Virus record (IMG/VR): IMGVR_UViG_3300031418_000001
Strand: one strand, 5' to 3'
Length of the DNA: 64,000 nucleotides
Source of the DNA: a virus
Lineage: Duplodnaviria > Heunggongvirae > Uroviricota > Caudoviricetes
Shown here: piece after piece, positions 5,682 to 43,753 of the stretch
Layout: every line of letters begins with the position of its first letter
Numbering within the stretch: the first letter of the stretch is position 1
Made by a program: the position numbers and the translations under genes
The notes under the pieces: generated by a model
What the model was told of the DNA's origin: nothing
The model's input: only the letters and a program-made list of their open reading frames with translations
Databases searched by the model: none

Positions 5682-5771
5682 GGAGAGTTGGCAGAGTGGT
5701 CTATCGCAAACGCCTACTAAGCGTTCGGGGAGTCAAATCCTCCGTGGGTTCGAATCCCACACTCTCCGCCA
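5682..5771 (+). tRNA. tRNA-Ser with ACU anticodon
   Basis: GGAGAGT/ACTCTCC acceptor, AACGC-CT ACT AA-GCGTT anticodon arm, long variable arm, G73, CCA. Confidence 0.9.
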
Positions 5772-6657: not shown

Positions 6658-7083
6658 ATGACAAGAAAAGTTAGTTCTTCAATAAAGTTAACGTATAAAG
6701 TACTTTTAAATAATAAAAAGAACTTCATAACGAAGGATCTAAAGCATTGGAATGATTATAGCTTCGGTAATTACATTACTTTGGCTACTTATAAAGATTA
6801 TGAGATTGAAAAGAGAAATTCAGATCATTATAAAATACGCTTAAGTCCGTACTTTGGACTTTCATTCAAAAATGATACGAATGAATGTCAGATACAGACA
6901 AGAAAATTTGGAGAACCAAAGTCACATTACACCTACATTGATTTGAATATCACTACACGTGATGAATTCTTTAATCATATGATGTGCAATGATATTGGTA
7001 CTCTAACGTTTGAAGATTTAGAAGTACTAAAACAAATTAAAAATTTAACTCTTAAAATTATAAAAGGAAATCTTAATGGCTAA
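6658..7083 (+). CDS. FN-motif paralogue family protein
   Basis: TRDEFFNHMMCN. Confidence 0.75.
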   Translation: MTRKVSSSIKLTYKVLLNNKKNFITKDLKHWNDYSFGNYITLATYKDYEIEKRNSDHYKIRLSPYFGLSFKNDTNECQIQTRKFGEPKSHYTYIDLNITTRDEFFNHMMCNDIGTLTFEDLEVLKQIKNLTLKIIKGNLNG

Positions 7084-7705
7084 AATGACACTTACCCAAG
7101 CATTAGTTGAACTGAAAAAACTTGATTCACAGATCAAACGTAGTACTTCGCAGCAGTTCATCGGGTACGTTACCGGTTCAGGTATTTGGGAAAAAACAAG
7201 TGATCGTCGTCATGCTGATAAAGCACAGGCAGAGAAAGCATATCAAGCTGCACTTGACCAAGTACAGTCACTGATTACTCGCCGTACAACTATCAAGAGT
7301 GCTGTTGTTCAGGCTAACGCTACCACTAAAGTAAAAGTTGGTGATGTAGAAATGACTATTGCGGAAGCAATTGAGCGTAAGAACAGCATCAGTATTCAGC
7401 AATCCCTTTTGGGTACACTGATTAAGCAACATGCAGAGGTTGTTAACACAGTAACCCGTCTGGATCACCAGACCAATACTGAAATCAGTCAGCTTCGTGA
7501 AACACTGTCAAGTACTGGTAAGCTGGATGATACCAAACTGAAGCAGGGTTCAGAAGACATTATGACCAAGCAAAAGGCATCACTTGTTGATCCTAACAAG
7601 CTGTCTGACCTGATTGACAAACTGACTGCTGAAATTGAAGATTTCCTGTCAAACGTTGATGTTGCACTGTCTGTAGCTAACGCTACAACCGAAATCGACG
7701 TGTAG
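7076..7705 (+). CDS. coiled-coil protein, putative partner of the downstream ncRNA
   Basis: Internal repeat MTLTQAL/MTIAEAI, C-terminal FLSNVDVALSVANATTEIDV; predicted all-helical. Confidence 0.8.
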   Translation: MAKMTLTQALVELKKLDSQIKRSTSQQFIGYVTGSGIWEKTSDRRHADKAQAEKAYQAALDQVQSLITRRTTIKSAVVQANATTKVKVGDVEMTIAEAIERKNSISIQQSLLGTLIKQHAEVVNTVTRLDHQTNTEISQLRETLSSTGKLDDTKLKQGSEDIMTKQKASLVDPNKLSDLIDKLTAEIEDFLSNVDVALSVANATTEIDV

Positions 7706-7726
7706 TAATTTTCTGGCACGAGAGTG

Positions 7727-8075
7727 CCAGATTAGTTAAGTACTTTGGCGTATCTACTGACGAGCCAAACAATCACAGTTCTGTATTACCAGCGGAACTG
7801 AAACTACTGGTGAACTATAATGGTTTATTATACTATACATATAAATGATTCCTTTTGGTGGTTGGGGCCAACCTAATCAACCACCGTAACGATCAACGAT
7901 GTAAAGTTTAACTTTTATAAGTTTAAAGATTTATAAGTTTAAAGTTATAAAGTTCCAAAGTTTAACGTACTTAGAGATTCTTCAAATCCTTGGTATTCGG
8001 GAACGGTAACGTGTGATTCTGACCTGGGCTTGCGACAAGGCTGGTAACATAGGTCAAAGTACTTTATTAATCTGG
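7727..8075 (+). ncRNA. candidate ~350-nt ncRNA with internal tandem 7-8 nt repeats
   Basis: ~27-bp closing stem (7727-7753 with 8049-8075); repeat tract at 7887-7968. Confidence 0.7.
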
Positions 8076-8087
8076 TACAAAAAATAC

Positions 8088-8111
8088 AAAGCACCTAAAT
8101 GGTGCTTTTTC
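8088..8111 (+). terminator. intrinsic terminator
   Basis: AAAGCACC TAAAT GGTGCTTTTT. Confidence 0.8.
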
Positions 8112-8130
8112 TATTTCAAAGGTACACTAA

Positions 8131-8415
8131 ATGCAAACTCAAGATTACAAAAATCGGCCTACTATCAAACTACTTACTATGATCTATAAAGTACGTTCTG
8201 AGATTGAAGTACACCGTAAAGCGATTCGTGCGAGCATTAAAGATAAGAAACCCGTTGTTCATCGTCTATCACATATGGTTGTATTAAGTATGTGTCAGGT
8301 GCATCTTGGGCTGATGGAACAACTTTCCGTAAATCTGGCAGCAGTCGATCCAGAACGCGATGAAAAAATTGAAGAACTGTGTCATTTATTTTGGGATCTA
8401 TATGGAACTAAATAA
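8131..8415 (+). CDS. hypothetical protein
   Basis: ORF in co-oriented run. Confidence 0.65.
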   Translation: MQTQDYKNRPTIKLLTMIYKVRSEIEVHRKAIRASIKDKKPVVHRLSHMVVLSMCQVHLGLMEQLSVNLAAVDPERDEKIEELCHLFWDLYGTK

Positions 8416-12893: not shown

Positions 12894-13204
12894 GGCCCCT
12901 TAGCTCAGTTGGTTAGAGCAGGCAACTCATCAAATGGTGACTTTTATCAGTAATGATAATTGAAAAACTGGATGAATTCAGGGAAACCTCAGCACGTAAT
13001 GGTGGTGGCAACCGTGAGCCAAGCCTGATAAGCGTATCAGGAAGGTGCAGAGACTAAATGGTGCAACACGTTCTTGTTGCGTAATACATTGTTAGCGTCC
13101 GGCACCCTAACTATTATAGAAGGGTGGTGATATAGTCCGTACCAGTATGAAAATATTGGATAAATCGAATTGCTTGGTCACAGGTTCGAGTCCTGTAGGG
13201 GCCA
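12894..13204 (+). tRNA. tRNA-Ile2(CAU) split by a group I intron (exons 12894-12930 and 13168-13204)
   Basis: Joined exons give GGCCCCTTAGCTCAGTTGGTTAGAGCAGGCAACTCAT|AATTGCTTGGTCACAGGTTCGAGTCCTGTAGGGGCCA, close to E. coli ileX. Confidence 0.92.
12931..13167 (+). mobile_element. group I self-splicing intron (237 nt, no internal ORF)
   Basis: P AATTCAGGGAAAC, Q AACCGTGAGCCAAG, R GTGCAGAGACTA, S GATATAGTCC, P9 GAAA loop, U-G at 5' splice site, terminal G. Confidence 0.93.
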
Positions 13205-24511: not shown

Positions 24512-24733
24512 GGGGCATGTTCCAAGAGGGTCGATTGGGCGAATAAACTATGAACGTCGCTGGCGTAAAAGCCGTCTGTTAACTGAATCACTGAATGTCT
24601 CAGAAGCACCTATAGCGGCCTGACAACAGGCGGGGAGAAACAAGCAAGGGAAGCGTAGTCTAAGGTGAGGAAGGCGTATAGCGAGAGTTATACGTAGCAG
24701 AAAGTACGGGTTCGAATCCCGTATGCTCCACAA
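24512..24733 (+). ncRNA. ssrA: compact tmRNA; tag frame 24585-24623 (A)ESLNVSEAPIAA*
   Basis: GGGGCAT/ATGCTCC-A acceptor with G3.U70, T arm, pk1-like hairpin, TTAACT upstream of the resume codon, tag ending IAA-stop. Confidence 0.85.
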
Positions 24734-40809: not shown

Positions 40810-41296
40810 CATGGAACACAAAAAACCTTTTAAGCAATTGAAAAATGCTCTGATGATTATTGCATCTAATCATTCATCCATTATGAATGAAATATCCAAA
40901 AGTAAAAACTACAAAAAAATTGAGAATCCATTTATAAGTACTGCTGGTGCTCCTTGGCATACACTTAAGGCTCCGCGTAATGATATTGAATTTGATATTA
41001 CTATTGGTAATGATTATCTTCCACAATTACATCTACAAAAGCAGTCTAATAAGTTTATCATTATGTATAATGGTGCAACATATTACATTGATTCCTACAA
41101 TATTTCAGCACATGAAGATGTTGGGTATCCTATACTTCAGGTAGACATTAGTGGTATTGATTCTAAAACTGATATGTTTAGTCTTAGTACGGTACGTGAT
41201 TTCTTTGATTTGGACTATAATGATATTGAGGCATTGAATTACTATATGTCATCTGCTAACAGTGCTTATAATAAGTTGAAACATAATCATGTTTGA
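40799..41296 (+). CDS. FN-motif paralogue family protein
   Basis: SKTDMFSLSTVR. Confidence 0.7.
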   Translation: MENNMEHKKPFKQLKNALMIIASNHSSIMNEISKSKNYKKIENPFISTAGAPWHTLKAPRNDIEFDITIGNDYLPQLHLQKQSNKFIIMYNGATYYIDSYNISAHEDVGYPILQVDISGIDSKTDMFSLSTVRDFFDLDYNDIEALNYYMSSANSAYNKLKHNHV

Positions 41297-41504
41297 TTAT
41301 ATCACAACAGTACTTTCTGACGATGGTATAAGTACATTTGAAATTGTAGGTACTTCCGATAAAGTACTTTGTCTTAATTCTCTACTTGAGATCCTTCTTA
41401 CTGATAATTCATTTGTTTGTGTGCAGGATAGTAACAGTGAATTGGGTTTTTATCGACATAAGTACCATAAACACTGTACATCTAAGATAGGTCATGCTTT
41501 ATAA
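41289..41504 (+). CDS. hypothetical protein
   Basis: Last ORF before a convergent hairpin. Confidence 0.55.
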   Translation: MFDYITTVLSDDGISTFEIVGTSDKVLCLNSLLEILLTDNSFVCVQDSNSELGFYRHKYHKHCTSKIGHAL

Positions 41505-41527
41505 GAAGGGCGGCAATGCCGCCTGTC

Positions 41528-42658
41528 TTATGTGCCTGATACGATGATTCTTGCCTGGATTGGATTGATAACTGAGATAGTTATATTTGATGAAGAGTCA
41601 ACACTAATGGATTCATGTGATACTTCGTACACATCAGTTCCTGTTAATTCAGAAACCTGTACTACTACATCAGATGATTTGCTATGTTCAGATTGTGGAA
41701 TACTTAAGGTAAAGTAGCCGTTCTGGTCTACCCAATCAGAAGTACTTACAGTCTTAACATATAAGTCATTTGTCAAAAGAAGAACATTAGTATCAGTTGG
41801 TGTTACCTGATTTAATGTAATATCATGTGAAGTGTTATTGTATGATACTTTTGGTGTATATACCTGACCAGTAGTGTACTGAGTCTGAATGATGAAATCG
41901 GTTTCAGCATGGGTACTACCAAGTAGTACTGCACTGAATGAGTCATCTGACTGTTTGACGAATGATGCTTGCGGTATTAAGAAAGATAATACATTGTCAT
42001 CATCACCAATTACGTTAACTGTACCATTAGTACTCTGATAAAAATCAGATTTAACGGTAACGACAAAAGTACCAGATGATAATGCAGGTACTGGTATACT
42101 GAATGTGCCATCAGAGTTAACATCAGATGTATACTCAACACCATCAATCACAACCGTCACAGTCATTCCATCAGTGTTTAAACCTGCTGAACTGTATGGA
42201 AGAATAGTACCATTGATTACGGTATCACCTGCGTTTATACGTTCAAATACAATTGAACCTAATGGCGGTTTTGGTAGTGAACATGTAGGTGGTACAAGAT
42301 TATATAAATGTCTTCCGTCTGCTAATATTACTTTATTGTCATAGAACTTAATAGCGAATCCATGATCGCCTTGCTCATTCATTGAACGAACGTAGAACTG
42401 ACCAGGTTTAAGTAGTGATGGTAAGTCATCATCTGACATATCATAGTCAAGTAGTGAACCTTGTTTGTTCAAACCTGTAATACGAAGAGACGGATAGATA
42501 GTACCATCTATGTCTCTTATATCATAGTCATATGAGTTGCGTTGCTTTTGTATTCTGGCATCTTTAATAACCGTGCCATCTTTTAGTACTGCACCCTGAA
42601 TAAGAAATCCACATATACCATAGGGATACCTTCCAGCGGCTGCTACTGTTTTTGCCAT
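41528..42658 (-). CDS. putative virion protein with an Ig-like (Big) domain
   Basis: TVTVVIDGVEYTSDVNSDGTFSIPVPAL Ig-like strand pattern; GGAGG RBS; GGGGTAAATA motif upstream. Confidence 0.65.
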   Translation of the reverse strand: MAKTVAAAGRYPYGICGFLIQGAVLKDGTVIKDARIQKQRNSYDYDIRDIDGTIYPSLRITGLNKQGSLLDYDMSDDDLPSLLKPGQFYVRSMNEQGDHGFAIKFYDNKVILADGRHLYNLVPPTCSLPKPPLGSIVFERINAGDTVINGTILPYSSAGLNTDGMTVTVVIDGVEYTSDVNSDGTFSIPVPALSSGTFVVTVKSDFYQSTNGTVNVIGDDDNVLSFLIPQASFVKQSDDSFSAVLLGSTHAETDFIIQTQYTTGQVYTPKVSYNNTSHDITLNQVTPTDTNVLLLTNDLYVKTVSTSDWVDQNGYFTLSIPQSEHSKSSDVVVQVSELTGTDVYEVSHESISVDSSSNITISVINPIQARIIVSGT

Positions 42659-43112: not shown

Positions 43113-43228
43113 GATAAGACATAAAGAAAATTTTGGGTGCTGATGAAAGCATTTACGAATCGTAAAAATTTCGGAGCATTGACCAACAATCAAGCTGAAG
43201 TTGAACAGATCGAAAGAGCGGGGATAAT

Positions 43229-43753
43229 ATGACTGTACTTGTAACAATGATGAAAAAATCAATGGTTGGTAAACCTGGATATATTTCTGAGTATCCTGAA
43301 AACGTGTACGTATTTGATAAGTGTCTGAAAGTACGTGCATCTGAACTGGATATTGCGAACGTTAAAAAATGGGTATGCTTTCTTGAAGGTACACCAATTG
43401 TTCTGGTATTCGATGTTTTATTAACCCGCTTAAGTACTGGATACTTACAGGCTTTCATCTATAACAGCAAATGCGAAATTAAAACTACTGATGCTGTTGG
43501 TGAATATAACACCAAAAATGGTACATGGTATGTTTCAGAAATCTATGGCGATAAACTTGTTACTTCTAAAGAACTGCTGGGTATTTGTCAGCGTAAGTAC
43601 CTGAATAATCCTACATTTGATCCGGTTGGACAGGTACAGATTGCTCCGGTCAGTACTACCAAAAAGTCAGAGACTAAGGGTAAGTACAAAGAAGATCTGA
43701 AGAATATGAGTCCAGAACGTTTAGCTGAACTTAAACGTCAAATCTTTGGCTAA
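43229..43753 (+). CDS. hypothetical protein
   Basis: GGGGA RBS. Confidence 0.75.
   Translation: MTVLVTMMKKSMVGKPGYISEYPENVYVFDKCLKVRASELDIANVKKWVCFLEGTPIVLVFDVLLTRLSTGYLQAFIYNSKCEIKTTDAVGEYNTKNGTWYVSEIYGDKLVTSKELLGICQRKYLNNPTFDPVGQVQIAPVSTTKKSETKGKYKEDLKNMSPERLAELKRQIFG

Follow-up and report, generated by a model that had tools for sequence, protein, structure and literature searches.

A conserved, pseudoknotted RNA coupled to the T5.085-family gene in large, tRNA-rich phages

Positions 7076 to 8113 of a 64,000-nucleotide (nt) stretch of tailed-phage DNA (IMG/VR record IMGVR_UViG_3300031418_000001; hereafter, the window) hold the gene of a helical protein of the T5.085 family and, directly behind it, a pseudoknotted RNA of ~355 nt (7724-8078). 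Our analyses firmly show that this structured RNA is conserved, strand specific, and present in single copy, and that in large phages rich in tRNA genes it is firmly tied, genetically, to the gene of the T5.085 family. A sequence-only reading of the window had noticed the gene, a closed RNA behind it, and a series of short tandem repeats, and had proposed a ribonucleoprotein in which successive subunits of an oligomeric protein bind the repeats, as in TRAP. What stands of that interpretation is a structured noncoding RNA (ncRNA) genetically coupled to the upstream helical protein, whereas the analogy to TRAP fails at the level of the family. The reading that we favor, with evenly poised confidence, is that the RNA and the T5.085 protein may act together as a ribonucleoprotein, because the two show obligate synteny across very distant phages and because RAGATH-18 and its partner TnpB provide a precedent (see below).

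The coupling of gene and RNA was found in both directions of search. Starting from the protein, tblastn identified homologues in 744 phage records, among them T5-like Demerecviridae (of Escherichia, Salmonella, and Vibrio), Vequintavirinae, Pseudomonas Flaumdravirus, Bacillus Bastillevirinae, Lactococcus 949-like phages, Aeromonas phages, and Erwinia jumbo phages. Behind the gene in every annotated phage inspected (T5, AKFV33, pVp-1, BCP8-2, KIL4, P1048, PVP-SE1, RAY, and BM15) lies an unannotated gap of 360-790 nt. The sequence-only reading had suggested that homologues of the protein be collected and checked for a repeat-bearing structured RNA behind them, and such an RNA does follow. A covariance model of the RNA 3' domain (AAAUCC-helix a-P5-...GGC-UG), termed R1, gave a single plus-strand match at the expected place in 82 of 94 protein-positive loci (E <= 0.1) and no stray match in 427 kilobases (kb); with the filters off, 10 further searched loci each matched weakly at the same place. 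In the window R1 matches 7969-8053 (49.9 bits, E 1.7e-6), its sole match in the 64 kb, though partly by construction, since the window sequence belonged to the seed alignment; loci outside the seed, T5 included, also match. All five complete phage genomes carry exactly one R1 match, located behind the gene. In T5 this match (43149-43231, minus strand) lies inside the unannotated interval after T5.085, and the entire RNA (NC_005859 43149-43504, minus strand; L143 5150-5505) fits within that 363-nt interval. The T5 record annotates a different RNA nearby, rnaX, a "stable RNA with unknown functions" at 40848-41566.

In the opposite direction, a scan of IMG/VR with a pattern of the RNA only gave 36 matches. 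In all 21 true matches, those with helix a and P1 correctly paired and with sufficient DNA 5' of the RNA, the protein gene lies immediately upstream (E 1e-27 to 1e-86); none of the chance matches has it. One pattern match that lacks a protein gene (L116) proved to be such a chance match, with tract and junction absent. Hundreds of sequenced virulent phages, infecting Gram-negative as well as Gram-positive hosts, carry the gene-RNA pair, with one copy per genome, and the T5 copy makes the cassette directly testable in a tractable model phage.

Conservation of the RNA itself was assessed on 79 non-redundant downstream regions, 14 of them from phage records and close relatives and the remainder from 80 IMG/VR loci. 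In all 94 loci retrieved by way of the protein, a single family RNA, measuring 280-440 nt, starts 5-80 nt 3' of the stop codon of the T5.085-like gene. From 5' to 3' it comprises the 5' strand of the closing helix P1 with its inner conserved G.U, the motif (G)AAAAC, the 5' strands of helices P2 and P3, a pseudoknot termed PK1, variable hairpins, the periodic tract, AAAUCC-NNG with the 5' strand of helix a, hairpin P5, the P2 3' strand, a short linker, CNNGG-C with the 3' strand of helix a, and the P1 3' strand. P1 spans 12-30 base pairs (bp) with a sequence that differs wholly between lineages. In alignment A5, positions A16, A17, C20, G72, and C73 are invariant.

Covariation was measured on a MAFFT alignment (A4) of 43 non-redundant RNAs with 500 shuffles. 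In this alignment 80.3% of the cells assigned to pairs are paired, compared with 55.8% upon shuffling and ~40% when the partners are slid, and the covariation score of 0.494 (0.155 shuffled, ~0.10 slid) was reached by none of the 500 shuffles. P1 is 95% paired with at most six pair types per position, and its G.U closing pair is retained in 37 of the 43 RNAs. Helix a is 89-99% paired and uses four Watson-Crick pair types. P2 is 74% paired, with changes on both sides in all eight of its pairs; both-sided changes are likewise found in all six pairs between P3 and the P5 loop and in all four pairs of P5, which is 58% paired in this alignment, while PK1 is ~70% paired where it can be aligned. P2, P3/P5, and PK1 played no part in the selection of the sequences and co-vary nonetheless. 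Finally, a core signature of helix a plus a 12-bp P1, at 11 or more of 12 pairs, is present in 51 of the 79 non-redundant loci, whereas the 395 shuffles yielded it 4 times and the 79 reverse complements never.

Because the closing G.U pair is kept and the signature is absent on the reverse complement, the constraint acts on the plus-strand RNA and not on the DNA. The same data speak to the idea that the stretch functions as DNA, as origin iterons or another protein-binding array whose inverted repeats act at the DNA level. Short tandem and long inverted repeats do occur in origins too. However, the retained G.U pairs would be C/A mismatches on the opposite strand, the signature is strand specific, pairings that form pseudoknots co-vary, and the stretch occurs in RNA libraries, so that we consider a DNA element highly improbable.

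The pairings of P1, P2, P3/P5 loop, PK1, and helix a are all present and co-varying in the window RNA, in which every element lies on the plus strand. The sequence-only reading had paired 7727-7753 with 8049-8075; this closing stem is present and the helix is in fact longer, with 7724-7753 paired to 8049-8078 and, past a small internal loop, 7755-7759 paired to 8042-8046. The 5' strand of P1 (7724-7759) ends in the family-conserved G of the G.U closing pair, and the 3' strand occupies 8042-8078. Inside P1, the P2 5' strand CGAGCC (7761-7766) pairs with GGCTTG (8027-8032), and a compensatory change in the phage XaC1 converts this helix to TAAGCC/GGCTTA. The P3 5' strand AATCAC (7771-7776) forms a pseudoknot with 8013-8018 in the loop of hairpin P5, and a change of CA to TG is offset by TG to CA in XaC1 and in a related phage contig (L010). 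P5 itself (8005-8024) is closed by GGT (8005-8007) and ACC (8022-8024), and its 14-nt loop holds the P3 partner. PK1 (7777-7811) is an H-type pseudoknot, with a stem of 7777-7781/7795-7799 and a loop, ACCAG (7788-7792), that pairs with CTGGT (7807-7811). Compensatory changes in PK1 include G to C with C to G in L007 and A to U with U to A in XaC1, and the same layout is visible by eye, with other sequences, in other clades. The conserved AAAU and the helix a 5' strand CCTTG (7988-7992) occupy 7984-7992; CCTTG pairs with CAAGG (8036-8040), which follows the P2 3' strand and a 3-nt linker, GCG (8033-8035), and is itself followed by an invariant C (8041), these last elements together spanning 8027-8041. 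Because helix a crosses both P2 and P3, the core contains three pseudoknots.

The sequence-only reading had recognized the simple hairpins but overlooked these pseudoknots, in which P3 pairs with the P5 loop, 7807-7811 pairs with the PK1 loop, and helix a crosses P2. CAGTTC (7776-7781) and GAACTG (7795-7800) form one of these hairpins, and GGTGGTTG (7857-7864) and CAACCACC (7878-7885) form another, the latter among the local hairpins of a variable region at 7812-7886 that, in some relatives, is the insertion site of tRNA-like modules. Minimum free energy calculations on a 410-nt stretch gave -122.9 kcal/mol compared with -87.0 +/- 5.7 kcal/mol for shuffles (z = -6.3), and the five sequences of the window clade already contain 17 compensated pairs.

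Between the stop codon of the gene (TAG, 7703-7705) and P1, the window clade has a hairpin formed by TCTGGCAC (7712-7719) and GTGCCAGA (7724-7731) around GAGA. As GTGCCAGA doubles as the outermost part of the P1 5' strand, this hairpin (7712-7731) and P1 are mutually exclusive. The competing hairpin had been described from the window sequence, and it is present and co-varies within the window clade; it is not a family-wide feature. As a general switch it was rejected, because no comparable helix stands out in the clades beyond the window clade. At the other end of the RNA, the terminator that the sequence-only reading had placed there is borne out by an intrinsic-terminator-like hairpin (8088-8108) followed by a U run (8088-8113 overall), which is kept in the window clade and closes the gene-RNA transcription unit. 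No sigma-70-like promoter was found between gene and RNA.

The stretch is also present in RNA libraries. Contigs identical (100%) to the window were found in three metatranscriptome runs from three studies and in a fourth, probable RNA run. They cover 7691-7964, 7754-8028, 7758-8011, and 7797-8015, which is mainly the RNA. Only one of the runs also contains pieces of the flanking coding sequence, at a contig depth of ~10 compared with 87 for the RNA; in runs X16-X18 most of the coding sequence is uncovered, which is not read as absent transcription. The contigs show that the stretch is present in RNA libraries, and they hint at a higher abundance or stability of the RNA.

Such an arrangement of stop codon, RNA, and terminator, with no promoter-like site between gene and RNA, would be expected if the RNA were a cis-acting 3' untranslated region that stabilizes or regulates the T5.085 mRNA, by blocking exonucleases or, through the competing hairpin, by coupling folding to translation, and that has no function in trans. 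The location of the competing hairpin 7 nt past the stop codon in the window clade fits this view. Nevertheless, a pseudoknotted RNA of 300-400 nt with a positionally conserved array far exceeds what a stabilizer needs, the competing hairpin is restricted to that one clade, and the contigs cover the RNA without the coding sequence in three of the four runs. We thus regard a purely cis-acting role as improbable.

The RNA also holds an array of about 11 U-N-A-A-A-G-type units at 7887-7968, which is predicted to be mostly single stranded. This tract had been delimited at the same positions by the sequence-only reading, and the program TRF recovers it at 7902-7965 with a period of 8, 8.4 copies, and the unit TAAAGTT. 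Across the 43 sequences the units align position by position; their U and A columns are near-invariant, and the family consensus, U-N-A-A-A-G-N, is interrupted mid-array by a U-rich break (UCUU). In the window sequence the near-invariant columns are spaced 7, 8, 7, 8, 8, and 7 nt apart. Family-wide autocorrelation of AAA/AAG shows the same periodicity, with 212 occurrences at lag 7 (34 expected) and 179 and 144 at lags 14 and 15, respectively (~35 expected). The alternation of 7- and 8-nt spacings gives a super-period of ~15 nt, which would suit a dimer or an ~80 Å rod. The broader idea of a periodic repeat platform survives as a hypothesis; alternatively, as was also raised for the window, the repeats may be a sponge for a host RNA-binding protein.

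The gene upstream of the RNA (7076-7705, plus strand) encodes a 209-residue member of the T5.085/phrog_1491 family. It stands out as a GC-richer island, with 43% GC compared with 30-35% in its flanks. The phrog_1491 profile matches over the full length (E 5.7e-57; residues 1-209 on profile positions 2-209 of 211), and T5-like homologues share 31% identity with the window protein over 99% of its length. The label "tail fiber protein" that has been propagated in this family has no visible basis; as the T5 member, T5.085, is located among early genes, the label is unsupported, and the annotation of the family is corrected accordingly. Pfam, NCBIfam, and PADLOC searches with the protein and its two neighbors returned sub-threshold noise only, and neither these nor the phrog profile searches detected a nuclease or other enzymatic domain in the protein.

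AlphaFold2 models the protein as an elongated helical bundle that is almost entirely helix (pLDDT 88). Prediction with two copies yielded a symmetric homodimer (pLDDT 91) with an ipSAE of 0.69, compared with 0.00 for the best control, and with agreement of at least 98% of contacts among runs. In calibration, 20 of 30 proteins whose solved structures are one-chain pairs reached the mark used for dimers, as did 1 of 23 solved as single chains. These predictions support a symmetric homodimer for the T5.085-family protein. Structure searches (Foldseek against PDB, VIA-align, ESM Atlas) found only an uncharacterized C. diphtheriae protein, 3kdq (Z 9.7), and generic helical bundles, and a profile search of PDB sequences with the protein gave nothing significant. 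A helix-NATT-beta-strand motif occurs twice in the protein (residues 81-84 and 202-205) and hardly varies at either place, which suggests an internal duplication.

How the RNA and the protein would work together can be outlined from these data. The window segment 7076-8113 is one copy of a widespread phage cassette, consisting of an early helical-protein gene and an RNA co-transcribed right behind it. The RNA core, made up of P1, P2, P3/P5 loop, PK1, and helix a, closes a long loop presenting the ~11 single-stranded U-N-A-A-A-G units. The RNA may be freed from the mRNA as a stable species, and rod-like protein dimers may then engage the array, with two units (~15 nt) per dimer or protein length. 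The resulting particle might intervene in RNA or tRNA metabolism early in infection, for example as a scaffold or decoy. In its fullest form, which we advance tentatively as one possibility, this model describes a new class of phage ribonucleoprotein in which T5.085 dimers would coat the ~11-unit array held in a triple-pseudoknot scaffold, with tRNA-like modules in some phages, and would act early on tRNA or RNA metabolism or on host defense, in phages from T5 to Bacillus, Lactococcus, and jumbo phages.

Several observations weigh against a ribonucleoprotein. The obligate synteny would also be explained if the RNA merely depends on the promoter or transcript of the gene. No RNA-binding domain or signature was recognizable in the protein by domain and structure searches, and its charge is about neutral by hand count, with 27 K+R and 28 D+E. 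The most conserved residues, R70, K74, N81, A82, and E97, fall within the predicted dimer interface, so that dimerization alone can explain their conservation. In addition, the assembled contigs from the RNA libraries define neither ends, strand, nor true abundance, and DNA carry-over is possible.

In an alternative reading, the stable ncRNA would act without the T5.085 protein, in the manner of the RNAs ROOL and GOLLD, as a tRNA-related scaffold, decoy, or ribozyme, and the gene would supply only a context for transcription or processing. Strong covariation and as many as three pseudoknots are what is typically seen in RNAs that are self-sufficient, tRNA genes adjoin the RNA in many of the annotated phages examined, tRNA-like modules are embedded in some copies, the contigs cover the RNA far more than the coding sequence, and the protein lacks an RNA-binding signature. 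However, gene and RNA were never found apart in either direction of search across Demerecviridae, Vequintavirinae, Herelleviridae, jumbo phages, and Lactococcus phages, and the RNA starts merely 5-80 nt past the stop codon. Such linkage is hard to maintain without functional coupling, and we therefore view an RNA that works alone as somewhat unlikely. The constant setting among phage tRNA genes, the tRNA-like modules embedded in occasional copies, and the periodic array of single-stranded units point to unexplored phage RNA biology, for which takeover of translation, RNA turnover, and counter-defense could be considered as candidate roles.

The window as a whole is phage DNA with 20 tRNA genes, a group I intron, and densely packed small open reading frames, and the same stretch is recurrent in phyllosphere and plant metagenomes. 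Its closest sequenced relative is XaC1, a 349-kb Xanthomonas jumbo phage; megablast of the window against phages gave no match. In XaC1 (L001 4344-4754) and the related contig L010 (4110-4496), the gene-RNA cassette is followed by a gene for peptidyl-tRNA hydrolase (PTH2), which is a further translation-related neighbor. In the window, the group I intron lies in the tRNA region at 12919-13159 (Rfam, 76.6 bits), ARAGORN reports a tRNA-Ser with the unusual anticodon ACU at 5682-5771, and a tRNA-like gene with a four-base anticodon (gaga), to which ARAGORN assigns no identity, lies inside the tRNA cluster at 24650-24731.

Comparison with known systems begins with TRAP, a beta-sheet ring of 11 subunits whose targets are (G/U)AG triplets spaced 2-3 nt apart. 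The trp leader and the window RNA both display ~11 short periodic motifs in single-stranded RNA. In contrast to TRAP, however, the window protein is a helical rod that is predicted to be a dimer, which does not support a TRAP-like ring, the repeat unit is U-N-A-A-A-G at a spacing of 7-8 nt, with no (G/U)AG triplets, and no TRAP-like fold is found among the structure-search matches of the protein. The specific analogy drawn by the sequence-only reading thus fails for the family.

The topology of the core, together with the tRNA context, led us to consider RNase P-like and transfer-messenger RNA (tmRNA)-like readings as well. RNase P RNA, which like the window RNA is associated with tRNA genes, has a P1-P2 arrangement in which a third helix crosses P2 and ends just before the P1 3' strand. 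The likeness to P1, P2, and helix a, and the resemblance of AAA(U)CC...GGCU to P4, offer a lead only. The bulk of the window RNA sits where RNase P has only P3, and there are no equivalents of the specificity domain or P15. Membership in the RNase P family was rejected, with no model match in the window (E <= 10) or in 15 related loci (E <= 1). tmRNA was rejected as well: ARAGORN found none in the window or in 57 family RNAs, inside which it also found no tRNA, and the RNA has no Rfam tmRNA match.

Like YrlA, which is paired with Rsr, the window RNA has a long stem that closes both ends together with a displayed module. However, its partner is a protein other than Ro/Rsr, Y RNAs have neither such a repeat array nor such pseudoknots, and the YrlA model has no match in the window RNA (7650-8150, E <= 10). 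In the copy of the Erwinia phage RAY (NC_041973; L012 2244-2307), the variable region does hold a permuted tRNA-like module that resembles YrlA (T arm, short arm, and D arm; 44.5 bits). Elsewhere, the L066 copy has a T-arm-like, tRNA-like stretch in its variable region, and YrlA-like elements lie immediately outside the RNA of L050, at 1082-1139 and 2579-2642.

ROOL and GOLLD are large structured phage ncRNAs that typically lie beside tRNA genes and are abundantly transcribed (PMC9241854; PMC12286853). The window RNA resembles them as a large, structured, phage-borne ncRNA near tRNA genes. In contrast, the cages formed by ROOL and GOLLD consist of RNA alone and come without a dedicated partner gene, whereas the window RNA is smaller and is invariably attached to a protein gene. 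The ROOL and GOLLD Rfam models have no match in the whole window at gathering threshold, in 7650-8150 at E <= 10, or in 15 related loci. A long ncRNA of phage K has also been reported, next to tRNA-Met (PMC9241854). This RNA, lnc001 (L095 1167-1729; NC_005880 13666-14228, minus strand), was rejected as a homologue, as the upstream open reading frame is unrelated to T5.085 and R1 does not match.

RAGATH-18, which was later shown to be the omega/reRNA partner of TnpB (PMC11061315), is a case in which a RAGATH motif turned out to be the RNA partner of a protein. As in the T5.085 cassette, the gene is followed by a structured RNA at its 3' end; the cassette differs in that its protein has no detectable nuclease domain and in that there is no transposon context.

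The closest relationship is to another RAGATH motif. Although the window RNA has no Rfam match at gathering threshold (whole window) or at E <= 10 (7650-8150), and literature searches on T5.085, RAGATH-27, and T5 ncRNAs found no description, the candidate small RNA RAGATH-27 (RF03100) corresponds to the 5' ~86 nt of the family RNA in one clade, namely, the end of the P1 5' strand, CGAAAACUUUAAAC, and the first hairpin. The model scores 85.1 bits in L087 and 82.2 bits in L081 (cut-off 76.1), starting exactly at the 5' end of the RNA, and 55-59 bits in the clade of L058, L059, and L072. It leaves the window copy unmatched even at E <= 10, and it also fails to detect the 14 other loci searched from other clades, including the T5-like AKFV33, PVP-SE1, BCP8-2, and P1048. 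Coverage of the family in Rfam is limited to a 5' fragment from one clade. RAGATH-27 describes about a quarter of the RNA as one hairpin, treats the P1, P2, and P3 strands as unpaired, and contains neither the pseudoknots, the repeat array, the 3' domain, nor the link to the protein. Because the matching loci L087 and L081 share the full architecture, the window copy is a member of a larger family that contains the RAGATH-27 fragment. Judged from these sequence matches, RAGATH-27 is a fragmentary earlier sighting of the RNA that stands behind the T5.085-family gene.

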